From IMG/VR virus record IMGVR_UViG_3300021255_002694: a DNA stretch of 64,000 nt; one strand, given 5' to 3'. The translations under genes and the position numbers were made by a program. The notes beneath the pieces were generated by a model that saw only the letters and a list, made by a program, of their open reading frames with translations, ran no database searches and had not been told where the DNA came from. Below are positions 8,754 through 20,934 of the stretch, piece by piece; position 1 is the stretch's first letter; every line of letters begins with the position of its first letter. This DNA comes from a virus. Its lineage: Duplodnaviria > Caudoviricetes.

Positions 8754-9271
8754 TGAAGATGCAAATGGTTGAAGAATTCATGTCAACTGTTGATCAAGAT
8801 TCTGAGTATATTCAATCTTTAGTTGATGATCTTGTTAAATCGTGTTGTGAAACACTAGACGAGTATGTAAAGTGGGTATCATCTTTATTGGCAGATTCGA
8901 GTATTCACGTAACAAATGAGCAACTTGATGATATTATAATGACGATACCAACACTTTTATACTTTGTTGGAACACAGCAAGAAAGATATGGTATTAAAAG
9001 AGATGTTTCCAAAGCATCTAAATCAACACTGTATAATAAGATTTACCGTGAGACTATTGGTATTGCGTCTGTTAAGAAAGCTGCCGCAGAGGACGCAACA
9101 TTTAATGAGAATCTTGTAACAACTGTTTTTTCAAGTGCATATGACACAATTAAAACAAAGATGGAATATGCAACAGAACTTTTGCAGAGTGCGAAAAAGG
9201 TTGTTTCAAGACGTATGACTGAATCAGATTTAACACGCTTTACACCAAATATTGAACGTGAAAAAAGGTGA
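8750..9271 (+). CDS. Hypothetical helical protein (possible recombination mediator)
   Basis: Coupled ORF between recU and recA, predicted alpha-helical. Function inferred from position only. Confidence 0.5.
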   Translation: MMKMQMVEEFMSTVDQDSEYIQSLVDDLVKSCCETLDEYVKWVSSLLADSSIHVTNEQLDDIIMTIPTLLYFVGTQQERYGIKRDVSKASKSTLYNKIYRETIGIASVKKAAAEDATFNENLVTTVFSSAYDTIKTKMEYATELLQSAKKVVSRRMTESDLTRFTPNIEREKR

Positions 9272-9277
9272 TTATTT

Positions 9278-10432
9278 ATGTCAGAGATAGAGTCATTATT
9301 CAAAGAATTTAATAAAAAGTATAAATCAGAACTTTTTACTATTGGAACAGTTGTGCATAACTGTTCAAGAATACCATTTAGTTCACCTAGAGCAAATTAT
9401 ATGCTATACGGCGGCATTCCAAGAGGACGTATTACAGAGTTCGCCGGAGAAGAAGGTTCTGGAAAGACAACAACCGCTCTTGATATTACAGCAAATGCAC
9501 AAAAGCTGTTTAAGGAAGAATGGGAAGATCAGATTCGTGATCTGGAATCACGCGAAAAATTAACTAAGGAACAGACCGCATATCTTGTAAAACTTAGACA
9601 GGACGGACCTAAGAAAGCACTTTGGATTGATTGTGAAAATACGTTTGATGATGAGTGGTCTACAAAACTAGGTGTTGTTGTAGATGAGTTGTGTGTCATG
9701 TCACCTGAATCTCAGAGTGCAGAAGAAATATTTGATATGGTTACACAGATTGTTCAAACAGGTGAAATTGGGCTTGTTGTTATTGATAGTTTAGGTATGA
9801 TGGTTTCTCAGCAAGAAATGGAGAAAGATATTGAGGAATCTACATATGGCGGAATTTCAAGAGCATTGACCAAATTTTCAAAGAAGATTGAACTTGTTTG
9901 TGCAAAAACTAATTGCGCATTGATCGGAATTAACCAAGTTAGAGATAATCTGAATGCCGGATACGGCGGTCCAGCATATACTACTCCTGGTGGTAAGTGT
10001 TGGAAGCATGTATGTTCTGTTCGTCTTATGTTTAGACAGGGTACTCCATTTGATGATAAGTTTAAGGATGTTAAGAAATCGTGTGAGAATCCCTATGGTC
10101 ACAGAGTTCTTATTTCAGTTCAAAAGACAAAGGTTTGTAAGCCTGACAGAAAAACAGGTTTTTATACGCTTACATATGATAATGGAATTGAACCGTTTGT
10201 TGACATTATTGATATTGCTATCAACCGAGATATTATTCATCAAGCCGGAGCATGGTTTACATTCATTGATATTGATAATGATGGTGAAGTTGTATGCCGC
10301 GAAGATGAAGATGGCAATATGTCAGAAGTTAAAGTCCAAGGTCAGGCTAGCCTGATCCCATTTTTACAAGATGAAGCAAATAAGGATATTTGTGACATGG
10401 TTAAGAAATATGTAAATAGATTTGTGTCATGA
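9278..10432 (+). CDS. recA: RecA/UvsX recombinase
   Basis: GGIPRGRITEFAGEEGSGKTT, LVVIDS, INQVR, TPGG, AGAWF. Confidence 0.95.
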   Translation: MSEIESLFKEFNKKYKSELFTIGTVVHNCSRIPFSSPRANYMLYGGIPRGRITEFAGEEGSGKTTTALDITANAQKLFKEEWEDQIRDLESREKLTKEQTAYLVKLRQDGPKKALWIDCENTFDDEWSTKLGVVVDELCVMSPESQSAEEIFDMVTQIVQTGEIGLVVIDSLGMMVSQQEMEKDIEESTYGGISRALTKFSKKIELVCAKTNCALIGINQVRDNLNAGYGGPAYTTPGGKCWKHVCSVRLMFRQGTPFDDKFKDVKKSCENPYGHRVLISVQKTKVCKPDRKTGFYTLTYDNGIEPFVDIIDIAINRDIIHQAGAWFTFIDIDNDGEVVCREDEDGNMSEVKVQGQASLIPFLQDEANKDICDMVKKYVNRFVS

Positions 10433-10442
10433 GGTAATTAAA

Positions 10443-12155
10443 ATGGAACTTAGTAAACAGCAGAGAGAAATTGTTGATTCCAAAAGTAAGAAAATAATTG
10501 TTGATGCTGGTTCTGGTTCTGGTAAAACACGAGTTCTAACAGAGAGAGTTAGAAAGTTACTCAGCAGCGGAGTAAACCCATACTCCGTTGTTGTGATAAC
10601 TTTCACAAACATGGCAGCTAATGAGTTGTATGACAGATTGTCAGATGTTAAAAACTCGGATAAATGCTTTATTGGAACAATACATGCATATGCTCACAAG
10701 CTATTAAAGAAATCAGGATATGATTTTGATATATTTTCTGAATACTATCAGACTTTATACATGACAGAGTTGTTAAAGAAATATGGATACTATGCAACCG
10801 TTGATGACTATAATTTATTCTTAAAATATGATAAAATGATTGCATCAGGAAAAATGCAAAAATCTGATCTAAGAAACAAATTCACTGATTACAAAGTATA
10901 TGATGAACTAATGGCACTTCTCGGCAGAGTAAAGCGATCATCATATAAAGAAACGGTTGTTACAATGTGCAAAGAAAACAATGTAATAACTTTTGATGAA
11001 CTAATTGATTTAGCAACAAAGTATTTTAAGGACAGTAACACGAAATTAGAATATCTTTTTGTTGATGAACTTCAAGATATTGGTTATCTTGAATATAACT
11101 TCTTGCTTAGTTTGAATGCTGAAAACTACTTCTTTATCGGTGACGATTATCAATGTCAACCAGCCGGAACAAAGGTGAATATTGTTTGTCATCCAAATAC
11201 AGACATATCCGAAGTAAAGGTTGGAGATTGGATTCAGTCAGCAGAAAGAACATCTGATGGCAAGTTTTGTCATACAAATCTAATGAAGAGAGTTATCAAT
11301 GTTCAAAAGAGCATTTCACCAGAGATATATACTGTCAAAACTATTGACGGTAGAACATCATCATATACACCAAATCATAGATGTGTTGTTGGTGTATTTG
11401 ATAAAGAAACATGCAATATCCATATTGAAGAAGTGCTTGCAAAGAATCTGAATAAGTATATGTACGCTATTGTTATAAAGAATGATAGGTACATGTTTGA
11501 TCGGATTGTAAGTATAGATCATGTTGAAAAAGATACTGATGTTTACTGCCTAGAGGTTGATGATGGATTATATTTTGCAGACGGTATGCTTACACACAAC
11601 AGCATCTTTTCATTTAAAGGTGGAGATGTAAATATTTTCCTATCTTTAATGCATAATGAAGAGTGGCAACCATATTTTCTTACTGAGAACTACAGAACAG
11701 CAAGATCAATTTTAATGTATGCAAATTCCATTGTTCAGAATGCAGATGATATAATTAAAAAAGATGTTGAGTTCAAGAATGAAAATGTTGGAAGCCTTGA
11801 ATTTAACACAAAGTCACAGCTTGAAAAATTCTTATCTGACCTGAATCCAAATGATGATTGGTTTATTCTAACACGATCAAATAAGGAAATGAGCGCGATT
11901 GATTTAATTTTAAAGAAGTTGAATAAAGAACACTACTGCTTTAAGCAATCTACAACAGCACCTAAAAAGATCAATGAGATATTATCGAAGCCGTGTATAA
12001 AGGTTATGACAATACATGCATCTAAAGGTCTTGAATGTGATAATGTTGCACTGTATGGAAAACTGCCTGTAAAGGGAAAAGGTCAATCGGAAGAACTAAA
12101 AGTTTATTATGTCGGTATAACAAGATCAAAAGATAGATGTGTTATTTTTGTGTGA
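10443..12155 (+). CDS. uvrD: UvrD/Rep-family SF1 helicase, compact, with mini-intein
   Basis: AGSGSGKT, ITFTN, GTIH, VDELQD, GDDYQ|SIFSFKG, NYRT, TIHASKGLE, YVGITR. Confidence 0.9.
   Translation: MELSKQQREIVDSKSKKIIVDAGSGSGKTRVLTERVRKLLSSGVNPYSVVVITFTNMAANELYDRLSDVKNSDKCFIGTIHAYAHKLLKKSGYDFDIFSEYYQTLYMTELLKKYGYYATVDDYNLFLKYDKMIASGKMQKSDLRNKFTDYKVYDELMALLGRVKRSSYKETVVTMCKENNVITFDELIDLATKYFKDSNTKLEYLFVDELQDIGYLEYNFLLSLNAENYFFIGDDYQCQPAGTKVNIVCHPNTDISEVKVGDWIQSAERTSDGKFCHTNLMKRVINVQKSISPEIYTVKTIDGRTSSYTPNHRCVVGVFDKETCNIHIEEVLAKNLNKYMYAIVIKNDRYMFDRIVSIDHVEKDTDVYCLEVDDGLYFADGMLTHNSIFSFKGGDVNIFLSLMHNEEWQPYFLTENYRTARSILMYANSIVQNADDIIKKDVEFKNENVGSLEFNTKSQLEKFLSDLNPNDDWFILTRSNKEMSAIDLILKKLNKEHYCFKQSTTAPKKINEILSKPCIKVMTIHASKGLECDNVALYGKLPVKGKGQSEELKVYYVGITRSKDRCVIFV
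11154..11600 (+). mobile_element. Mini-intein (149 aa) in helicase motif III
   Basis: Starts CQPAGTKV, block B TPNH, ends VYCLEVDDGLYFADGMLTHN followed by +1 Ser. No endonuclease domain. Confidence 0.92.
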
Positions 12156-12165
12156 GGTATTTAAT

Positions 12166-12897
12166 ATGAGTGATTATGAATTTGATTTTGCAGGGTATGC
12201 AAATAGTGGATCAGAACAAACATCTAAAGATTTGGAAGAATTTGCAAAGGATGTTTTCGGAGAAGATGATCCAACAAAATCGCCTAAAGATAGATTTATT
12301 TTAATATACAAAAACAACATTAAACGCGAGGGATCAAGTGATCTTCTAGCATATCTTGAACAAAACGGTTTCTTTCATGCTCCGGCAAGTACAAAATATC
12401 ACGGTGCTTTTAAGGGTGGTTTGTGTCTACATTCTGTGAATGTATACCTCAATCTTCATGATGAATTACGTCAAATTTATGGTTCAGATTATAGAAAAGT
12501 ATACTCAGATGAAACAATCGCTATTGTATCTCTACTTCACGATGTTTGTAAGATTGATAAGTATATTGAAGTTGAGAAAAATGTTAAGAATAATGAAACA
12601 GGTCAATGGGAACTTACAAAGTGTTTTGAATACAATAAAGATCAGCCCAGACTTGGACATGGTTCATCTTCTGTTTACATGATTCTTGATCATATGAAAC
12701 TAACACTTGAAGAAAAACAAGCAATTCACTGGCATATGGGACCATTTGATCTATCTACATATGAATCAACATATGACATGGGTGATACATTCAATAAAAA
12801 TACTCTTGCATTTGCACTTCATATTGCAGACATGACAGCGACATATATTGACGAAAATGAATATTTTAAGCCGATAGAGGATGATTGTGATGGTTGA
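12166..12897 (+). CDS. HD-domain phosphohydrolase
   Basis: APASTKYH...GGLCLHS...LLHDVCK...GHG...HWHMG...HIAD. Confidence 0.85.
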   Translation: MSDYEFDFAGYANSGSEQTSKDLEEFAKDVFGEDDPTKSPKDRFILIYKNNIKREGSSDLLAYLEQNGFFHAPASTKYHGAFKGGLCLHSVNVYLNLHDELRQIYGSDYRKVYSDETIAIVSLLHDVCKIDKYIEVEKNVKNNETGQWELTKCFEYNKDQPRLGHGSSSVYMILDHMKLTLEEKQAIHWHMGPFDLSTYESTYDMGDTFNKNTLAFALHIADMTATYIDENEYFKPIEDDCDG

Positions 12898-13222
12898 TAG
12901 TGATAAATTCAATTTCAGAGAACCTGAAACATTTTCATACGATAATGTGAATATTGGAATTGAACTTGAAGCAACAACATTAAATCCATCAGATGATGAA
13001 GTTATCGTTGTTCAATATCCGGATGTCTGTGTTTCAAGGAATGAAATTATGCATATTGCAGATGCACTCAGAAAATCTTTGAAACAAAGTTTTCCTAATA
13101 ATGACATCATATTCATTCCAAATGATATAAATGTTGATTCTTTTAATAGCAGAGAAGTGATTGATCGTCTTAGATCACTTGCTGATAAACTAGAGAAAGA
13201 ACATAGCGAAAATAATAATTGA
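12881..13222 (+). CDS. Hypothetical protein
   Basis: Coupled ORF, no recognised motif. Confidence 0.5.
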   Translation: MIVMVDSDKFNFREPETFSYDNVNIGIELEATTLNPSDDEVIVVQYPDVCVSRNEIMHIADALRKSLKQSFPNNDIIFIPNDINVDSFNSREVIDRLRSLADKLEKEHSENNN

Positions 13223-13375
13223 TATAATATAAAAATTAAACATTATCATACCATATGAAGTACGCCTTTAATGGTGCTTTGGATAATTGAAATTGTGGCA
13301 GTTGTCTTTGGACTAAGCCTAAGTGCGGATGGATGCGTCTGTCCGCACTTTCAATTCAAAGGAGTGTGACTTTAT

Positions 13376-13618
13376 ATGGTAATGGTTGTCTCCATACTCG
13401 GTGCTTTATGTAGTCTTGGTGGAAATATTTTAATTATGCTGAAAAAGAAATCCGGTTGGATTGTATGGGTTCTCGGCAACTTATTTTGGATCATTTACAA
13501 TTTTATGTCAAAACCTAATTTACCGATGATAGTAATGTACCTAGTCTACATTGTTATAAATATACTCGGATATTGTAAATGGTGTGATAAAGAAGATAAG
13601 ACAAAGATTGAAATGTAA
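13376..13618 (+). CDS. Small PnuC-like membrane protein
   Basis: Three hydrophobic helices, GWIVWVLGN...YLVY...LGY..W pattern, AAGGAG RBS. Confidence 0.55.
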   Translation: MVMVVSILGALCSLGGNILIMLKKKSGWIVWVLGNLFWIIYNFMSKPNLPMIVMYLVYIVINILGYCKWCDKEDKTKIEM

Positions 13619-13670
13619 ATATTGCACAAATTTCTGCATAATATGTGTTCTTATTTTTACTGAAAAATGC

Positions 13671-13699
13671 TTGACAAATCTAAAATAATGTGGTATACT
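13671..13699 (+). promoter_or_regulatory. SigA-type promoter
   Basis: TTGACA-17-TATACT with TG. Confidence 0.75.
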
Positions 13700-13725
13700 A
13701 TATTTGTAAACGAGAGGTGATATAT

Positions 13726-14010
13726 GTGAAAGAAGTAGAGAAAGAAATTGAAACTCTGATCGTAAGTAAATCACAGATCATCGTAACACTTAAAAGTGTT
13801 CTTATCAACGGTGAGTTCGGAACTGTCACATTTCGTAAATATAGCACTGCTTCGTTAGGAATGACATCTTTCGGTCTTTTACCGTTTGAGAGATACTTTA
13901 TAATTGCCGAAACATCAAACGATAAAGTAACTTTTGAATGCACTAAAGAGGAAGGAAATTCTCTTTATAAATATGTAAAGGATAAAAGAGAGTTCAATTT
14001 TGATGAATAA
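13726..14010 (+). CDS. Hypothetical protein
   Basis: GTG start after GAGGTG. Confidence 0.5.
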   Translation: MKEVEKEIETLIVSKSQIIVTLKSVLINGEFGTVTFRKYSTASLGMTSFGLLPFERYFIIAETSNDKVTFECTKEEGNSLYKYVKDKREFNFDE

Positions 14011-14041
14011 TATCTTTGTTGCAAGATAGGTTGATATAACT

Positions 14042-14335
14042 ATGTGGATGGATTTTTGTGATATCATAGAAACTATTATTGATGTAATAAAAGAGCATAT
14101 CAAACTCTTTATATTCATTGTTGTAGTGTTTATATGTCTATTTGTAGTTATTCCGAATCAGCGAATGAATGACATCAAATCTAGTAAATCTATACGTGTT
14201 GATGGAGTTACTTACAGCACATCACAAATAGAGTCTTTTGACATAATTTATCACAGATACGGCAAAGATGAATATGTAATCGTCTTAAAGGATGGAACAA
14301 AAATATATTTCAACGAATACACTTTAATAAACTGA
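14042..14335 (+). CDS. Hypothetical membrane-anchored protein
   Basis: One hydrophobic segment (LFIFIVVVFICLFVVI). Confidence 0.5.
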   Translation: MWMDFCDIIETIIDVIKEHIKLFIFIVVVFICLFVVIPNQRMNDIKSSKSIRVDGVTYSTSQIESFDIIYHRYGKDEYVIVLKDGTKIYFNEYTLIN

Positions 14336-14381
14336 GTGATTACTATATTGATTAGTAAACATAAAACTATGAGGTAAATTT

Positions 14382-14822
14382 ATGAGAAAGAATTGCAAGA
14401 CGTTTGAACAGTGGGCGGATTCACAATATAGTGAATATATAGGAGTTCGGGATAAGGAGTCCAGTCGCCTTAGAGATCATCTTACAGTTTCAGATGATAA
14501 GTTTGTAGAGGTTGCTATTTACAGCACAAGGACAAAGAAAATCGGAATTGCAAGGTGTCATGAGGATACATCTCAGATTTATATTGGCTATGCTGTTGCA
14601 TGGGCAAGATATAAGGGAGAGGCTATTCCTGAAATCCCAAACTACGAAGCTGTAAAGAATCTTGCAAATGGCGATCGGTTTGAATATCTTGGAAAAATGT
14701 ATGTTGCGGATTCTCAGTGTGATTTTAACAGCAACCTTAGATATTGTCTTGCAGTAAGAAAAAGTGATGAGAAACGAAAGATAACCACATTCGACAAAAA
14801 TTTGATTGTTGTGAAGCTGTAA
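14382..14822 (+). CDS. Hypothetical protein
   Basis: GAGGT RBS; GIARCH...IGYAVAWAR motif typical of small phage proteins. Confidence 0.55.
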   Translation: MRKNCKTFEQWADSQYSEYIGVRDKESSRLRDHLTVSDDKFVEVAIYSTRTKKIGIARCHEDTSQIYIGYAVAWARYKGEAIPEIPNYEAVKNLANGDRFEYLGKMYVADSQCDFNSNLRYCLAVRKSDEKRKITTFDKNLIVVKL

Positions 14823-14838
14823 AAATTAAAAAAAAAAT

Positions 14839-14909
14839 AGGAAGTTAGTTAAGTGGTAGAACGGCAGTCTCCAAAACTGCATACAGAGGTTCGATTCCTC
14901 TACTTCCTG
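14839..14909 (+). tRNA. trnW: tRNA-Trp(CCA)
   Basis: Cloverleaf AGGAAGT/ACTTCCT, GCAGT-CTCCAAA-ACTGC, TTCGATT. Confidence 0.92.
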
Positions 14910-14916
14910 TTCATAC

Positions 14917-14989
14917 GTGCCTGTAGCTCAGTTGGTAGAGCAACGCCCTTTTAAGGCGAAGGTCATGGATTCGAGTTCCATCAGGCACA
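14917..14989 (+). tRNA. trnK: tRNA-Lys(TTT)
   Basis: GTGCCTG/CAGGCAC, loop CTTTTAA. Confidence 0.92.
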
Positions 14990-15075
14990 CTCATTGACAT
15001 TTATATAGGTAAGACACTTTAATGAACTGACAAAAGCATTTTAATTATTTGACATTTTCTAACCTCACTTTCTAT

Positions 15076-15136
15076 AAAGAACCAAATCCTGATCAGGTTC
15101 TAGTCGAAATAGTTTTCGATTTGTTTGAGATCAGGA
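15076..15136 (+). ncRNA. Repeated structured RNA motif, copy 1
   Basis: AAAGAACC - stem TCCTGATC/GATCAGGA with internal loop GGTTCT/TGTTTG and an inner hairpin. Confidence 0.55.
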
Positions 15137-15173
15137 ATCATAGATTTTATGAAAAAAAAATTCAAAAAACCAC

Positions 15174-15202
15174 TTGACAAAATTAAAAAATTGTGATATA
15201 CT
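15174..15202 (+). promoter_or_regulatory. SigA-type promoter
   Basis: TTGACA-17-TATACT with TG. Confidence 0.8.
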
Positions 15203-15237
15203 ATATATGTAATTGACATAGAATTACTCCTATTGGC

Positions 15238-15295
15238 AAAAAACCATTACAGCTAGGTTTCAATAAGTGCAAGTTATTGTTTTTGAAGCTGTTAA
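15238..15295 (+). ncRNA. Repeated structured RNA motif, copy 2
   Basis: AAAAAACC - stem ACAGCT/AGCTGT, internal loop GGTTT/TTTTTG, inner CAATAA/TTATTG. Confidence 0.55.
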
Positions 15296-15344
15296 GCATT
15301 TAGTGAATTACACTACCAAAAACGGAAAGTATTGTTAGTGATTC

Positions 15345-15404
15345 AAAAAAAAACCAAAGCAACTAGGTTTCAGATAATTTCACATTCTGTTTTTGAAGTT
15401 GCTT
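15345..15404 (+). ncRNA. Repeated structured RNA motif, copy 3
   Basis: AAAAAACC - stem AAGCAACT/AGTTGCTT, internal loop GGTTT/TTTTTG, inner CAGA/TCTG. Confidence 0.55.
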
Positions 15405-15605
15405 ATATTCGAGTGCTTGAAACAGGAGTGGGGTAATCCATTTAAGGCATATGGCATGTACAGTAACCATTAGAGTTCTAGGAAACTCTTTTGGAGCTGA
15501 TTGCATGTATCGTCACAGGAGATGACTCAGATGTGTTTGATTTCCTAGAATCACACATACCACGATTCAAGTAGTGGCACTCCTGTTTCAAACACTTGAG
15601 TATAT
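15405..15605 (+). ncRNA. Unassigned ~200-nt multibranch RNA with kissing loops
   Basis: ~26-bp terminal stem (15405-15430/15578-15605), with complementary loops CTAGGA (15478) and TCCTAG (15543). Confidence 0.6.
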
Positions 15606-15677
15606 TCCCCTATAGTTCAGTTGGTAGAATGTGGGACTGTTAATCCTAAGACACTGGTTCAAGTCCAGTTGGGGGAG
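15606..15677 (+). tRNA. trnN: tRNA-Asn(GTT)
   Basis: TCCCCTA/TGGGGGA, loop CTGTTAA. Confidence 0.92.
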
Positions 15678-15685
15678 TTCATTAT

Positions 15686-15759
15686 GGTTCGGTAGTTCAG
15701 TTGGTTAGAATGCTTGCCTGTCACGCAAGAGGTCGTGGGTTCGATCCCCATCCGAATCG
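15686..15759 (+). tRNA. trnD: tRNA-Asp(GTC)
   Basis: GGTTCGG/CCGAATC, loop CTGTCAC. Confidence 0.92.
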
Positions 15760-15963
15760 CTCAAATCACATGGCAGCAAAAATCTTGGTTGAAACAAATG
15801 AATGAGTGGCTATAGGTGATAATATGTAGATGAAAATGCTCACACCTTACCATATGCACCATAGAACCGATTGAGAATAGGGTGTAAAAGCCTTGACTAA
15901 AAGTTTAATGCTCATTGTGTGATCGCCTAAATAAAGCTGGGAATAGGGCGAAATTAAAAAAAT

Positions 15964-16110
15964 CACCTAGTTTCGGTGCAACACTTATCACGGTGCATCG
16001 TTGGTAAGTGTCAAGTGGTATCCGAATATACAAACCGGATGATATTACAGAGGAATGCACTTCTTTGTAGTATTTGAAAGTCGTTGAGGGTTCGATTCCC
16101 TCCTAGGTGT
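15964..16110 (+). ncRNA. tRNA-like RNA with expanded arms
   Basis: Acceptor CACCTAG/CTAGGTG and canonical T-arm GAGGG-TTCGATT-CCCTC, with ~115 nt of extra hairpins between. Confidence 0.6.
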
Positions 16111-16207
16111 TTAAAATAAAAGGGAGTTAAGTCGTGGCGGCTTGAGCCTGTTTTAAGGTTCGGGGTGTACCGTACCACGCTAGCCCAAAGTCCATAAACA
16201 CCCATAT

Positions 16208-16294
16208 GCTGGTGTGGTGAAATTGGAAGACACAGCGTGCTTAAACCGCGCTTCCGGATGCGGAGTATGGGTTCAAGTCCCATCACCAGTACCA
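16208..16294 (+). tRNA. trnL: tRNA-Leu(TAA)
   Basis: GCTGGTG/CACCAGT-ACCA, long variable arm, loop CTTAAAC. Confidence 0.9.
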
Positions 16295-16320
16295 ATATAT
16301 TAAAGCAAAATTTATTTAAT

Positions 16321-16410
16321 GGCAGCGTGGCAGAGTCCGGCTTAATGCACCAGTCTTGAAAACTGGCGTTCCGAAAGGGACCGTTGGTCCGAATCCAACC
16401 GCTGTCGCCA
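16321..16410 (+). tRNA. trnS: tRNA-Ser(TGA)
   Basis: GGCAGCG/CGCTGTC-GCCA, long variable arm, loop CTTGAAA. T-loop is TCCGAAT. Confidence 0.9.
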
Positions 16411-16412
16411 AT

Positions 16413-16485
16413 GCTGATATAACTCAACTGGCAGAGTAGTGGTTTTGTAAACCACAAGTTGTGGGTTCAAGTCCCTCTATCAGCT
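16413..16485 (+). tRNA. trnT: tRNA-Thr(TGT)
   Basis: GCTGATA/TATCAGC, loop TTTGTAA. Confidence 0.9.
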
Positions 16486-16506
16486 TCAAAAATTTACAGT
16501 AAAGGC

Positions 16507-16535
16507 TTGACAAAAACAGAATTTTATGCTATAAT
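16507..16535 (+). promoter_or_regulatory. SigA-type promoter
   Basis: TTGACA-17-TATAAT with TG (perfect consensus). Confidence 0.85.
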
Positions 16536-16570
16536 ATTTGTATGACATACTTTATCAACTCTTTTGAATC

Positions 16571-16630
16571 AAAAAACATGCAGTGATGTTTCTATGGATA
16601 TGATTTATGTCTATAGTTTTAGTAACTACA
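16571..16630 (+). ncRNA. Repeated structured RNA motif, copy 4 (divergent)
   Basis: AAAAAACAT...ATGTTT, inner CTATGGATAT/ATGTCTATAG, then TTTTAG. Outer stem imperfect. Confidence 0.4.
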
Positions 16631-16637
16631 AAATTAA

Positions 16638-16711
16638 CGGAGTGTGGCTCAGTTTGGTAGATCGCCTGGTTTGGGACCAGGATGCCGCAGGTTCAAGTCC
16701 TGTCACTCCGA
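16638..16711 (+). tRNA. trnP: tRNA-Pro(TGG)
   Basis: CGGAGTG/CACTCCG, loop TTTGGGA. Confidence 0.92.
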
Positions 16712-16718
16712 TTTAACT

Positions 16719-16794
16719 GGAAGGGTAGCTCAGACGGTTAGCAAGCAGCGGTCTTATAAACCGCAGGTCGTGGGTTCGAGTCCCACCTCTTCCA
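16719..16794 (+). tRNA. trnI: tRNA-Ile(TAT)
   Basis: GGAAGGG/CTCTTCC-A, GCGGT-CTTATAA-ACCGC. Confidence 0.88.
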
Positions 16795-16928
16795 TTCATG
16801 CTCTACGGAGCGTAATTGATCTTCTGCTATACTGATCAAATCTAATACATCATCACGAAGGCAGAGTAGTGGTGATGTAATTATGAATAACATTATACTT
16901 GCTTTAATTGTAAGTAAATCATGTTTTT

Positions 16929-17015
<87 letters not shown>

Positions 17016-17176
17016 GTTTAGTCATAGGACCGTTGGAGGCTACGATTTACCGATGCAGTCCAGTCAAGGTAATCCCCTAAATCTACACAGGGAACAGAGG
17101 GTATGCAAACGGTGTGTTACTCTAGCAGTAGAAAACATAGCACCGTGACTGATAGGAGAGACTATCACTTATATAT

Positions 17177-17314
17177 GCAGGAATCGTCTAAATGTGGTTG
17201 CGACCAAAAAGAAAGAGTTTGCATTATTCCTAGGTAAGTGATGTGAACTTTAGTAATCCGTAGGACACGAACTGATCATTCGGATGTAGGAGTAGCGACC
17301 TGCTTCCTGCACCA
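17177..17314 (+). ncRNA. tRNA-Ile(GAT)-like RNA with ~65-nt D-loop insertion
   Basis: GCAGGAA/TTCCTGC-ACCA, anticodon arm CGAA-CTGATCA-TTCG, non-canonical T-loop, long hairpin inside the D-loop. Confidence 0.6.
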
Positions 17315-17318
17315 ATAT

Positions 17319-17390
17319 GGCTCTTTCGTCAAGTGGTTAAGACCTCTGTCCGCAAAGCAGATGTCGCTGGTTCAAATCCGGCAAGAGCCT
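17319..17390 (+). tRNA. trnC: tRNA-Cys(GCA)
   Basis: GGCTCTT/AAGAGCC-U73, loop CCGCAAA (C33 instead of U33). Confidence 0.85.
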
Positions 17391-17662
17391 TATATGCCCA
17401 AGCACCAGTCCTGAAAAGCACGGTTTGTGTAGCACACAAATGTCAGATGCATAAAGTCAGGTTAAAGTTGAAATTCGCTTGTGCAAAGAATACGGAACTT
17501 CACCGTAGGAGAACAGGTAGACGTACCCAAGAGTAAGTTGCAAGGGCTTAGAACTCTTAGCACGTAGCGTCAACGGAGTCCGGAATCAGGTTAGGATGGT
17601 TTCTTTGAAATATATGCACCGATAAATGTGGTGTCCTGATGAATGACGTAAAAAACCATTTT

Positions 17663-17737
17663 GCAGATGTAGTTTAATGGCTAGAACCTGTGACTTCCAC
17701 TCACAAGACGGGGGTTCGATTCCCCTCATCTGCTCCA
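17663..17737 (+). tRNA. trnG: tRNA-Gly(TCC)
   Basis: GCAGATG/CATCTGC-TCCA, loop CTTCCAC. Confidence 0.92.
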
Positions 17738-17743
17738 TTATTT

Positions 17744-17815
17744 GCCCCATTAGTTCATCGGACAGAATAAATCCCTTCTAAGGATCAGAGCGCGGTTCAA
17801 TTCCGTGATGGGGTG
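17744..17815 (+). tRNA. trnR: tRNA-Arg(TCT)
   Basis: GCCCCAT/ATGGGGT, loop CTTCTAA. Confidence 0.88.
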
Positions 17816-17978
17816 TCAAAACGCATCGAAATATCTGAATACCATAGCAACATGGAAACAGATAGACAAAATTTTATTTTTGTTCGTTCCCCGATTAGAT
17901 GTGTTTCAATTAAATAGGGAAAACTGCACATATAAGTTGCATTATACATGAAAGTGCAGATATATAAAGGAGATAAAC

Positions 17979-18317
17979 ATGAAATCAGTGCTTATTGTGA
18001 TCATAGCAATGTATCTTGTTTTTGCTATAACTGATGTAATTTGTTGTCCGATTCTATATCAGAAAGTGTTTTATAGAGTATGCAAGGATTCATTCAATGA
18101 TGATCAAGATGCATCGGTGGTTTCAAGAAAACTTGCTAGAGAATTTACATTTCGTTTTGCTTTTGTTCCACTTGCAAATATAGCAATTTTCATATTTTCA
18201 TTTTTAGACAATGATATTTTATGTGAACTTGAAATGTTTACATATAATATGTTTATGGAAGATGAAGATGCTAAATATGCACTTGCAGAGGAATTGAAAG
18301 AAATTAAGAAAGATTAA
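17979..18317 (+). CDS. Hypothetical membrane protein
   Basis: AAGGAG RBS, two hydrophobic segments. Confidence 0.55.
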   Translation: MKSVLIVIIAMYLVFAITDVICCPILYQKVFYRVCKDSFNDDQDASVVSRKLAREFTFRFAFVPLANIAIFIFSFLDNDILCELEMFTYNMFMEDEDAKYALAEELKEIKKD

Positions 18318-18321
18318 ATAC

Positions 18322-18403
18322 GGGAGTGTCGCCTAGTGGCAATGGCATCTGACTGTAAATCAGACGGTTTTATCCTTCGTTGGTTCAAGTCCAACCACTC
18401 CCA
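18322..18403 (+). tRNA. trnY: tRNA-Tyr(GTA)
   Basis: GGGAGTG/CACTCCC-A, loop CTGTAAA, long variable arm. Confidence 0.92.
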
Positions 18404-18413
18404 TTATCTATAA

Positions 18414-18497
18414 TGCCGTGTCGCCAAGTGGAAAGGCAGCGGACTTTGACTCCGCCAGCATTTATGCTTTACGTTGGTTCAAATCCAGCCACGGCAA
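18414..18497 (+). tRNA. trnQ: tRNA-Gln(TTG) with atypical long variable arm
   Basis: TGCCGTG/CACGGCA, GCGGA-CTTTGAC-TCCGC, 17-nt variable region. Confidence 0.82.
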
Positions 18498-18504
18498 TTC
18501 AATA

Positions 18505-18579
18505 GGTCCTATCGTCTAGTCTGGTCTAGGACGAGAGATTTTCATTCTCTAAACATCGGTTCAAATCCGGTTAGGATCA
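18505..18579 (+). tRNA. trnE: tRNA-Glu(TTC)
   Basis: GGTCCTA/TAGGATC, loop TTTTCAT. Confidence 0.88.
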
Positions 18580-18857
18580 TCTAAGACCACATGCTAATAT
18601 TCTTTGCGTGTTATACTTATGGCATGTTTCCTTTATTTAGAAATCCTGTGTCTTTTATTCATTTTTGCACAGGTCGGGTTGTCCATATGTCCGTACCTCC
18701 TTTGCGGTTTTTTACTCATACCTAAAGTAAACACGCTGCCGGAACAACACCTATGGTGAATGGTACGAAATGACCAGTCTATCTCTCTGCCATACGGGTA
18801 AAGACAGAGAGATAGATTCCGGAAACAATAAAAAAAAAAGAAATGTGTGGTGATTTC

Positions 18858-19343
18858 ATGAACAATGAGGGACTGATAAAATGTTTAGAGGGACTTCAGC
18901 AAGCACAGGATACAATAGATTCATTAAGCACTGAAATTGAAGAACTGAAAAACTCTAAAAAATGTCAATCATTACTATCATATATTCAGGGAAGTATATA
19001 CAGACCTGTTAAAGTTTTTTCTAAACAACCTAAATGTGGAAAATGTAATTCAAACGGCATGATCCCAGTAAAAGATGAATTCTTTACAAGATACGTTGAT
19101 TGCGATTGTCAAAAATTAAAATTTGAATATCAAGTTCAAAAATTAGATGTTGTATCAACGTCATATATTGATGATACTGATGATATTACATATGATTGTG
19201 TTGTTGGTAATGATCTAATTTCAGTTGCAGAAAAGTATCTGTACGATAGATTTGATAATAAGCATCTTGCATTAGACAGCAAGAATGTTTTTTATAAGAA
19301 TGAAGAAGATTGTAAAAAATTTGTGGAGGAAAAAAACAAATGA
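18858..19343 (+). CDS. Hypothetical coiled-coil/Zn-finger protein (paralog of 57621)
   Basis: CGKC...CDC and C-terminal FYKNEEDCKKF. Confidence 0.55.
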   Translation: MNNEGLIKCLEGLQQAQDTIDSLSTEIEELKNSKKCQSLLSYIQGSIYRPVKVFSKQPKCGKCNSNGMIPVKDEFFTRYVDCDCQKLKFEYQVQKLDVVSTSYIDDTDDITYDCVVGNDLISVAEKYLYDRFDNKHLALDSKNVFYKNEEDCKKFVEEKNK

Positions 19344-19756
19344 AAGTTAAAGGTGTACCGCTATTCGTGACATATAAGCATATTGATTATGTCAACGATA
19401 AAACAGGTGAAGAAGTGCATAGAACAGTTGCGCGATCTATTGTAGATTACTACAATTTGCCTAAAATTATCGCAACTACATTTATGGACATGTTTGCTAA
19501 TACTTCTGATATGTTTGGTGATCGCGCTGTAGAACTTGTTGCAGAAACAGCCTGTAAGGGCGGAGACACATACAATGAAACAACAGGTGAGAAGATCGCT
19601 CGTAAGAAGATCATGAAGAAATATATGTCTCTTGTTTCACAGGCATCTGCAAAGAAGATCGCTGATAATAATAAGGAGATTGAACTTCTTAATGACCTTG
19701 AACACAGTGCAGTACGATGTGAGTCAGATATTATTGATTATCTGAGAAAACAGTAA
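19340..19756 (+). CDS. Hypothetical protein
   Basis: C..GDTYNETTGEKIAR motif common in phage hypotheticals. Confidence 0.55.
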   Translation: MKVKGVPLFVTYKHIDYVNDKTGEEVHRTVARSIVDYYNLPKIIATTFMDMFANTSDMFGDRAVELVAETACKGGDTYNETTGEKIARKKIMKKYMSLVSQASAKKIADNNKEIELLNDLEHSAVRCESDIIDYLRKQ

Positions 19757-19818
19757 TTCTGCAAATACTAAATCGCTTTTTAGTCTATTCCATTCACGCT
19801 CCTTTATAATATATGCTC

Positions 19819-19849
19819 TAGCCTAGTTTTACAACTAGGCTACTTTTTT
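19819..19849 (+). terminator. Rho-independent terminator
   Basis: TAGCCTAGTT/AACTAGGCTA plus T-run. Confidence 0.75.
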
Positions 19850-19941
19850 GTTTCTTTATAGATTATATCACAGAAAAAACTGAATTTACAAGAATATTCA
19901 AACACTATAAGTATGATATTTTGTTGTTTTGGGGTGATAGT

Positions 19942-20934
19942 ATGTCAGTTCCGTACATTATTGATGGTGTTGTTGGTGACGGCACAGAACAAAATCCATA
20001 TCAAGTTACAACAATGGATCAAATGTTCTCATGTTGTGCTGTTGTAGATGCATATGTGTGTCTTATGAATGATATACACTGTGAATTAGATCAGAAATAT
20101 AAAGATTTTGTTACAAATACTCTTGTTATTGATTGTGCAAAACTGTATTCAGAAGGCACACGTAAAATCATATATAACTGGAATTGCAGACCAAAACTGA
20201 TAAATTCATCCATTCCGGATGTAACATTATCTACACGCTGTTGCATAAGAAATGAGTCTGCCGGAACATTGATAGATAATATATCTTTTGAGGGTTGTGT
20301 GTTTAGACAAACATATTATAATCAAAGTACGTTAAGCTGGTCATGCCTACTTTATTTTTCAGATACAACTAAGATAACAAATTCTAATTTCTCTTTCTTT
20401 ATGGATTTCTCTAAATCAATAACAGGTGATAATCAAAGTGGTGACATATATCATTATATACAGGGCGGAAGATTTTATAAAAGTTCCATTCATTTTAGTG
20501 GAAATCAGATTCAGTTCTTATTCAAATCAGGTTATTACCCACATATGGCACTGTTTTCTCCAACTAGATTTGATTGTGGTGAATTGTTTGCAACAAATCT
20601 TTACTTTAATCAATCAGGTTCAATAGCGGTATCAGATTACCCGTATATAAAGAATGTGACAAGGAGTCTTGTTGTAATTGAGAATGGTTATTTTGACAAT
20701 GATCACGGAAATGTGTATACTTACGTACTTACAAACTCATGTAGATATAATATAATATATTTTACTGGAAAACTGCGTAGATCGCCAGGTACTTGGTATC
20801 CATTCACAACAGATTGTGAATATCCTAATCTTATATATAGTGATCTGTTATCTTCAAAGGATGGTGCAGTTGTTGTACGTGATCCTAGCTTATTATCAAA
20901 TATAGATTATATACATTCATTAGGAATATTTTAA
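19942..20934 (+). CDS. Adhesin-like beta-rich protein (GxGTxxxPY N-terminus)
   Basis: MSVPYIIDGVVGDGTEQNPYQV; N-terminus shared with the next gene. Confidence 0.55.
   Translation: MSVPYIIDGVVGDGTEQNPYQVTTMDQMFSCCAVVDAYVCLMNDIHCELDQKYKDFVTNTLVIDCAKLYSEGTRKIIYNWNCRPKLINSSIPDVTLSTRCCIRNESAGTLIDNISFEGCVFRQTYYNQSTLSWSCLLYFSDTTKITNSNFSFFMDFSKSITGDNQSGDIYHYIQGGRFYKSSIHFSGNQIQFLFKSGYYPHMALFSPTRFDCGELFATNLYFNQSGSIAVSDYPYIKNVTRSLVVIENGYFDNDHGNVYTYVLTNSCRYNIIYFTGKLRRSPGTWYPFTTDCEYPNLIYSDLLSSKDGAVVVRDPSLLSNIDYIHSLGIF

Follow-up and report, generated by a model that had tools for sequence, protein, structure and literature searches.

The stretch of DNA analysed here, called the window throughout, comprises 64,000 nucleotides (nt) of IMG/VR record IMGVR_UViG_3300021255_002694 (Duplodnaviria; Caudoviricetes), and is part of a large uncultured phage in which every long open reading frame (ORF) lies on the + strand. 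Its proteins include a family A DNA polymerase, a UvrD-type helicase, an HD hydrolase, a Lon-like protease and methyltransferases. Sixteen tRNA genes, all on the + strand, are found in 14838-18579, interspersed with non-tRNA stretches, and this tRNA operon contains four copies (C1-C4) of a pseudoknotted RNA module that is the subject of this report. Upstream of the scaffold of several modules lies an antisense start-region segment (anti-TIR, for antisense translation-initiation region), whose reverse complement reads as a Shine-Dalgarno (SD) sequence followed by ATG. The anti-TIR pattern stands up statistically and is seen again in related phages; that it silences genes is an unproven proposal.

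Run metadata and the titles of metagenome-assembled genomes (MAGs) of relatives point to animal-gut samples and Clostridia hosts, and a large uncultured phage of animal-gut Clostridia is the best explanation for the window. Close relatives are absent from the phage collection and from IMG/VR as searched: blastn against 50,697 phage records returned tRNA matches only, the IMG/VR protein scan found no relative, and pattern scans of IMG/VR gave chance matches only, or none. Relatives were reached via the HD hydrolase encoded at 12139-12897, leading to contigs that encode its homologues, of which the most useful were L004 (76% identity), L005 (72%), and L011, L012, L135 and L136 (57-62%). The sole relative from a JGI metagenome (L002) has a neighbourhood without tRNAs and without modules. 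Nor was the module found in 80 MAG loci whose neighbouring HD hydrolase is 45-52% identical, and a covariance model detected 0 copies in 1.1 Mb of more distant relatives and 0 elsewhere in the window. Literature searches retrieved no description of modules of such type.

Fifteen clear members of the scaffold are spread over seven related contigs, with a weaker one at L011 11860 in addition, and the scaffold is limited to the tRNA regions of one phage clade. Its plan consists of an A-run ending in ACC, a linker of 1-6 nt, the outer stem P1, a loop AGGUUU, the variable hairpin P2, a loop UUUUUGA and the return strand of P1. Among the 15 clear members P1 takes the form of nine distinct, unrelated and covarying helices, in which pairing with the own partner reaches 4.9 of 5 as against 2.4 of 5 for cross-pairing; the 119 chance pattern matches in IMG/VR have three P1 pairs at most. 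P2 differs in every lineage, with direct compensatory changes between orthologues, such as TCGAAA/TTTCGA to CTGAA/TTCAG (C1, in L004) and CAATAA/TTATTG to CAAGAA/TTCTTG (C2, in L005). Pairing of the ACC box to GGU in the 5' loop strand creates a pseudoknot helix that is found in three forms, AAACC/GGUUU, GAACC/GGUUC (C1) and AAACAU/AUGUUU (the C4 type), equivalent to two compensatory events. The connecting loops measure 1-6 nt and 1-2 nt, and the hairpin sits in loop 3. The scaffold is an H-type pseudoknot, the interleaved helices of which each have covariation support, and the loop lengths suggest that P1 and the pseudoknot helix can form at the same time.

The G-U pairs and their changes are compatible with the + strand only. 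In C2, 15287 A>G gives a U-G pair; in C4, 16612 T>C converts a G.U pair of P2 to G-C, and 16581 C>T mends a C.A mismatch in P1. Since, in addition, + strand promoters lie directly upstream, the scaffold RNA is assigned to the + strand, and what a first reading of the sequence alone (the sequence-only reading) had regarded as a conserved scaffold is indeed a covarying RNA. Seven of the 16 modules (the 15 clear ones and L011 11860) end 5-20 nt before a tRNA, while two further modules are followed by a structured element of about 200 nt that adjoins tRNA-Asn. No protein gene travels with the modules, and their contexts are varied.

The scaffold is a real RNA motif outside known classes. An Rfam search of 13000-20000 at E<=1 returned tRNAs only, plus one sub-threshold chance match antisense to tRNA-Cys. 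Several candidate identities were tried and rejected: Type III antitoxin-like (ToxI) repeats (C2 and C3 lie 110 nt apart with different stems, no toxin gene is adjacent and Rfam gives no match); mimicry of an external guide sequence for RNase P via ACCA (the variant type is without CCA, and the pseudoknot takes up the ACC); a K-turn or loop-E internal loop, which the sequence does not fit; and preQ1-I, to which AGGUUCUAG has some likeness but no Rfam match.

The likeness of the upstream segments to start regions was quantified by a ribosome-binding site (RBS) score, defined as the duplex energy of the 17 nt before an ATG to ACCUCCUUU. Real genes of the window have a median score of -6.9 kcal/mol, and the minus-sense scores are -8.8 for C1, -6.8 for C2 and -2.4 kcal/mol for C4. 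Because just 14 ATGs on the whole minus strand of the window reach -6 kcal/mol (0.22 per kb), C1 and C2 are beyond chance; C4 is not RBS-like. The sequence-only reading had described all three as start regions in the RBS style of this phage, which applies to C1 and C2, with C4 at background level; the three strings that it quoted are all present, although the ranges given for C1 and C2 each end one base early, before the last A of ATGTCA. Minus-sense SD+ATG sites at <= -6 kcal/mol are rare, at 0.14-0.63 per kb, and most of the strong ones in relatives (two of three such sites in L004, three of four in L005 and one of two in L135) are located 30-45 nt before a scaffold. When each distinct upstream sequence is counted once (n=11), five of the 11 independent modules score <= -6 kcal/mol at 20-60 nt before P1, a sixth scoring -5.9, as against 1.1% of random positions (binomial P 7e-8).

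Read in reverse, the segments are GAAAGUGAGGU-N6-AUGUC (C1 type), AGGAGU-N6-AUGUCA (C2), AAAGGAGU-N7-AUGGCU (L005 C2), AAAGGAGGU-N5-AUGAUC (L005 C4) and AAAGGAGUG-N4-AUGAGU (L135), and CAU and P1 are 30-35 nt apart in eight of the ten listed sites. Because spacers, P1 and P2 have diverged completely across modules while the CAU, the CU-rich box and their distance to the scaffold persist, we read the CAU and the box as a two-part signal under purifying selection. The 15-nt box of C1 is identical in the window, in L004 and at L005 7218-7232, a paralogous site where P1 and P2 are entirely different, and variation in the C1 anti-TIR segment is confined to the spacer (15060 T>C in four runs). The C4 orthologue of L005 has a perfect box with a score of -13.2 kcal/mol, compared with the weak -2.4 kcal/mol in the window. 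In predicted folds of C1, of L005 C0 (7200-7290) and of L005 C4 (11225-11357) the box is unpaired, and an accessible C/U-rich seed of the kind expected in an anti-SD small RNA is present at -6.8 to -13.2 kcal/mol, the C4 copy of the window falling outside this range.

The minus-sense scan of the window yielded, along with C1 as its three strongest sites, two further non-coding sites on the + strand. At 18680-18715, a terminator-like hairpin that follows the last tRNA holds CAU-N8-ACCUCCUUU in its loop (-13.1 kcal/mol), and at 19785-19805 CAU-N5-CUCCUUU occupies 19790-19803 (-8.0 kcal/mol).

The window contains eight perfect TTGACA-N16-18-TATAMT sites where 0.3 are expected, and all eight carry the extended TG (Table 1). 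ATAT(A/T)TGTA is often found at the start site following this uniform promoter form, which is probably an early class read by the host sigma-A. From the promoters at 15174, kept in L004 and L005, and at 16507, transcripts are expected to start at about 15209 and at 16540-16542, with the C2 and C4 segments following within a few nt. The earlier claim that two of the segments lie next to predicted transcription starts is borne out in the window, where these promoters end at 15202 and 16535; in L005 the C4 segment sits behind an ORF and not at a transcript start. An 8-nt tandem duplication (GACATAGA at 15214, in run X3) affects the loop of the C2 leader hairpin, doubling GACAU and leaving the stem intact.

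Table 1. Features of the RNA modules C1-C4 and strong promoters of the window (A-box, the A-run ending in ACC or its variant; P1, outer stem; P2, variable hairpin)
Feature	Position	Strand	Description
C1 anti-TIR	15051-15076	+	GACAU 15051-15055, 6-nt spacer, CU-rich box ACCUCACUUUCUAUA 15062-15076
C1 scaffold	15079-15135	+	A-box GAACC 15079-15083 pairs with loop GGUUC 15096-15100
C1 scaffold stems	P1 15088-15094 with 15129-15135; P2 hairpin 15104-15119	+	
C2 promoter	15174-15202	+	Strong sigma-A type, extended -10, TTGACA-17-TGaTATACT; start expected at about 15209
C2 leader	15209-15237	+	Predicted 5' hairpin GUAAUU/AAUUAC 15209-15227 with GACAU in loop; CU box ACUCCU 15225-15230
C2 scaffold	15238-15292	+	A-box AAACC 15241-15245; P1 15249-15254 with 15287-15292
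C2 scaffold loops	15255-15260; 15280-15286	+	AGGUUU; UUUUUGA
C3 scaffold	15348-15404	+	P1 15359-15364 with 15397-15402; no anti-TIR before it (best upstream score -3.0)
C4 promoter	16507-16535	+	Perfect consensus TTGACA-17-TGcTATAAT; start expected at 16540-16542
C4 leader	16540-16570	+	Short 5' hairpin GUAU/AUAC; CAU 16546-16548; weak CU box ACUCUUUU 16558-16565
C4 scaffold, variant type	16571-16630	+	A-box AAACAU 16574-16579 pairs with AUGUUU 16586-16591
C4 scaffold stems	P1 16579-16584 with 16625-16630; P2 16592-16616	+	
tRNA-Pro	16638-16711	+	7 nt beyond the C4 scaffold; arrangement also in L005
Uniform strong promoters	13671, 15174, 16507, 20693, 33924, 39370, 50706, 53804		TTGACA-N14/15-TGnTATA(A/C)T

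Our best reading, held tentatively, is that the modules are leader or spacer RNAs of the tRNA operon in which an exposed, generic anti-SD and anti-AUG segment pairs with start regions, the pseudoknot serving as a stability or handling module. The module usually lies in a pre-tRNA leader or spacer, and an RNase P cut just downstream of it (for C4, at the 5' end of tRNA-Pro) would release an RNA of about 90-130 nt with the module at its 3' end, where it would probably help to stabilize or handle the RNA. Immediately 5' of the A-box, about half of the modules carry in single-stranded RNA a CU-rich box, ACYUCCUUUC-like, that is the antisense of a canonical Firmicute SD, with CAU located 5-8 nt further 5'. 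This segment would base-pair with the SD and the AUG of mRNAs and lower their translation, and the effect may be generic or class-wise, e.g., on phage genes with a GAAAGUGAGGU RBS or an AUGUCA start, not on a single gene. Where a gene follows, as for C1 in relatives, action could be in cis, and orphan copies would act in trans.

Targets were sought by a duplex search of the guides against 73 start regions of the window, with the reverse complements of real start regions as pseudo-guides for control. The best duplexes (C1 -20.2, C2 -22.4 with gene 19942, C4 -17.6 kcal/mol) compare with a pseudo-guide mean of -21.5 kcal/mol (standard deviation 2.7), and the 15-nt match with gene 36159 singled out by the sequence-only reading is present, with its one G-U pair, but ordinary, its -20.2 kcal/mol being average for the pairing of reversed start regions. 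Short-word BLAST of eight segments against all related loci revealed no specific partner, the best hit being a generic 14-nt match to the RBS of L005 gene 5592; the cluster ORF at 17979 is not a specific partner either. Because the C1 box is antisense to the RBS of several genes (24704, 51479 and 50779 in the window, and L005 5592) and seven of the 86 window genes start with ATGTCA, C1-type segments look generic or class-specific, rather than gene-specific. As regards action in cis, C1 lies 25 nt before an S-adenosylmethionine (S-AdoMet)-lyase-like gene in L004 and in runs X3 and X6, which is deleted in the window; in the minimum-energy fold of L004 the box would pair with the SD, and CAUU with AAUG, of this gene.

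Several observations weigh against start-region pairing as we propose it. On the start regions of the window the guides do not outperform pseudo-guides, no target stands out, and 27-nt patterns with <=3 mismatches had no match in 401 genomes sampled from the class of one MAG host. Judged by its own test of complementary targets above background, the strong form of the sequence-only proposal thus fails in the 64 kb of phage and the 401 genomes searched, from which no target of the kind expected for a trans-acting anti-SD small RNA emerged. The gene downstream of C1 in L004 is not the best complement in its contig (-8.4 kcal/mol, several other genes scoring better), and the genes of the phage itself would not be spared by a generic anti-RBS RNA. 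The segment is lacking in about half of the modules, among them C3, L135 5377 and L011/L136, and the predicted 5' hairpins of C2 and C4 place CAU within or beside them. Expression evidence goes no further than Logan contigs of one sheep-gut RNA library that cover 15021-15283 at depth 2, in which ends and strand are not visible and which may stem from DNA carry-over.

A serious rival, if a somewhat unlikely one, takes the CU box, the CAU and the A-run as signals by which the tRNA-operon leader is recognised or processed, such as a site where a ribonuclease enters or where S1 or another protein binds, or a decoy of the 16S rRNA 3' tail, in which case the start-region likeness would be a by-product and no mRNA would be bound. 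The lack of targets in the duplex search of the window would be explained, the likeness of the boxes to the 16S tail extends past the CCUCC core (ACCUCCUUUC in L005; ACCUC-A-CUUUCUA in C1), and the boxes are always single-stranded beside the A-run and a stable structure, usually in pre-tRNA leaders. However, such signals leave unexplained why CAU stands at SD-AUG spacing in 5-6 of about 7 independent boxes (P about 1e-3, a hand estimate made post hoc), and half of the modules presumably work without a box. We consider unlikely the original proposal of programmable small RNAs, in which a variable guide is antisense to one host or phage start region and the conserved scaffold is a handle, possibly for a protein. 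Segments do vary by locus while the scaffold stays, the C2 and C4 segments of L005 differing from those of the window and from each other, and contiguous pairing with a real start region is the easiest explanation for CAU at the correct SD-AUG spacing; on the other hand, the C1 segment is generic and its box invariant in three loci, so that only part of the picture of variable guides on a conserved scaffold stands, gene-specific complementarity does not exceed the start-region background, the 401 genomes contain no match, and no protein gene accompanies the modules in their varied contexts. A wider version of the same idea, which we think distinctly doubtful, is a natural guide-plus-handle system, in which exchangeable 5' segments would read start regions by a bipartite anti-SD/anti-AUG code and the pseudoknot would recruit a factor of host or phage or resist decay. 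If true, the translation of an mRNA class would be shut down in infection, making the system an RNA counterpart of T4 RegB-type start-region inactivation.

That C1 is just a weak promoter, TTGACA-17-TATAAA, and that C2 and C4 are functionless, either by chance (a -35-like TGACAT beside pyrimidine-rich leaders) or as decaying relics, appears improbable; a mere promoter at C1, with the other segments coincidental, had been named by the sequence-only reading as an outcome that would undo its proposal. The promoter-like sequence does exist at C1 (its TTGACA at 15049-15054, not at 15050), L005 has TTGACA-17-TATACA, C2 and C4 also contain TTGACA and ATGACA, and the RBS-likeness of C4 is at background. 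Nevertheless, C1 fails as a sigma-70/sigma-A promoter: its spacing fits, but its -10 TATAAA has neither the TG nor the terminal T of TGnTATAMT, the form shared by all eight real promoters of the window. Moreover, the TT of the -35 is lost in L004 (AAGACA) and X6 (CTGACA, 15049 T>C) while GACAU and the 15-nt box remain unchanged, the box being identical in three loci, which argues against a plain promoter. L005 and L135 possess anti-TIRs without any TTGACA, and the enrichment of start-region likeness before scaffolds also speaks against coincidence; the promoter reading of C1 is therefore disfavoured. Very improbable, finally, is that the segments are true start regions of minus-strand micro-ORFs, with the reverse complement of the scaffold as their upstream element. 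SD quality and spacing are excellent (in L005 the -13.2 kcal/mol site is followed by a 27-aa ORF), and seven of ten predicted peptides begin with Met-Ser. Yet ORF lengths range from 2 to 110 aa and are unconserved between orthologues: as the sequence-only reading stated, no substantial minus-strand gene follows in the window (4, 39 and 20 aa for C1, C2 and C4), and in relatives the C1 ORF measures 110 and 17 aa and that of C2 18 aa. Read from the minus strand, the G-U pairs would turn into A.C mismatches; genes and tRNAs alike occupy the + strand, and there is no suitable minus-strand promoter, the only one, at about 16558-16531, starting downstream of the ATG.

Pairing with start regions, as we tentatively propose, has precedents in Firmicutes, where the C-rich seeds of RsaE and RoxS pair with SD regions (PMC6158497, PMC5419742). 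The modules resemble these RNAs in their single-stranded C/U-rich segment complementary to the SD, in Firmicute-type hosts with strong SDs and in repression as the expected outcome. They differ by adding an anti-AUG at SD-AUG spacing, by being phage-encoded within a tRNA operon, by being followed by a pseudoknot and not by a terminator hairpin, by yielding no target in the 64-kb window and the 401 genomes, and by having no sequence or Rfam similarity to them. The tRNA cluster of phage T4 yields the stable species 1 and 2 RNAs, for which we know of no function, and Lalaouna and colleagues reportedly described in 2015 the 3' external transcribed spacer of leuZ acting as a sponge of small RNAs. 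A regulatory role for a tRNA-operon spacer is documented for this leuZ sponge (10.1101/2021.04.25.441314). Like the modules, these are non-tRNA RNAs that are co-transcribed with tRNAs and freed by tRNA processing, and that may pair with other RNAs; they contain neither a pseudoknot module nor an anti-RBS/anti-AUG segment, and for the phage modules it is RNase P that would effect the release.

With respect to the scaffold, triple-helix stability elements of the ENE/MALAT1 type (PMC7583470, PMC8457004) likewise combine a hairpin with a U-rich internal loop and a genomically encoded A-rich tract, with a tRNA or tRNA-like structure just downstream, where RNase P cleavage would set the 3' end. U-rich loop strands and an A-run, which might form U.A-U triples, are present in the scaffold. 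Unlike in ENE/MALAT1, the A-tract of the scaffold lies 5' of the hairpin and forms Watson-Crick pairs, including two G-C, with the 5' loop strand, resulting in a pseudoknot topology, and its setting is bacterial and phage. The SAM-II/SAM-V and preQ1-II riboswitches are H-type pseudoknots with triplex cores, which share with the scaffold the A-rich and U-rich strands and, in preQ1-II, a hairpin in loop 3; C1 in relatives, directly preceding a gene and with an anti-SD available, adds to this likeness. In contrast to these riboswitches, the scaffold has no Rfam match at E<=1, most modules precede tRNAs, the anti-SD lies 5' of the fold and no ligand is implied.

The tRNA region includes further elements. 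At 15404-15604, between C3 and tRNA-Asn, lies the structured element of about 200 nt mentioned above, which is closed by 27-nt complementary arms and has no Rfam match. Being present in L005 (about 9000-9190) and precisely absent from L004 and X3 (202 nt skipped, with ATGTTT instead), it behaves as an insertion/deletion unit. The stretch 15141-15153 is a deletion junction, where L004, X3 and X6 have 810-816 nt encoding a 265-aa protein with a weak S-AdoMet-lyase Pfam match. Further upstream of it in relatives, after tRNA-Lys, there is a 151-aa gene; both genes are missing from the window, which is why C1 has no downstream gene there. A tRNA-like RNA with a perfect acceptor stem, a T-arm (GGTTCGATTCC) and a long insert is found at 15960-16110, was not called by ARAGORN, and is kept in L005 (about 9545-9695). 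The fragment at 16840-16900 resembles the D-arm region of a nearby tRNA-Thr (21 nt, 90% identical to 16430-16450) and may be a tRNA remnant. Outside the tRNA region, L011 1-3276, L133 148-4092 and L134 1-3703 encode QueC, a PTPS/QueD-like protein, a radical-SAM QueE-like protein and GTP cyclohydrolase I upstream of the replication genes, suggesting 7-deazaguanine DNA modification in this phage group. Inteins, and HNH or GIY-YIG genes, interrupt the polymerase and helicase genes of several relatives.

Annotations usually treat phage tRNA clusters as tRNAs and otherwise junk; this one houses a structured RNA family with strong covariation, beside which a segment that appears to be selected mimics what the 30S subunit offers to mRNA, namely an anti-SD together with CAU. 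The A-tract, the U-rich loop and the tRNA directly downstream echo the MALAT1 solution to making a 3' end. Even without binding to start regions, the pseudoknot motif qualifies cleanly as a candidate new RNA family. Should the RNAs bind start regions, they would provide the phage with a tool for translational takeover or temporal shut-off, obtained as a by-product of tRNA processing, and would constitute compact natural parts for synthetic translational control.

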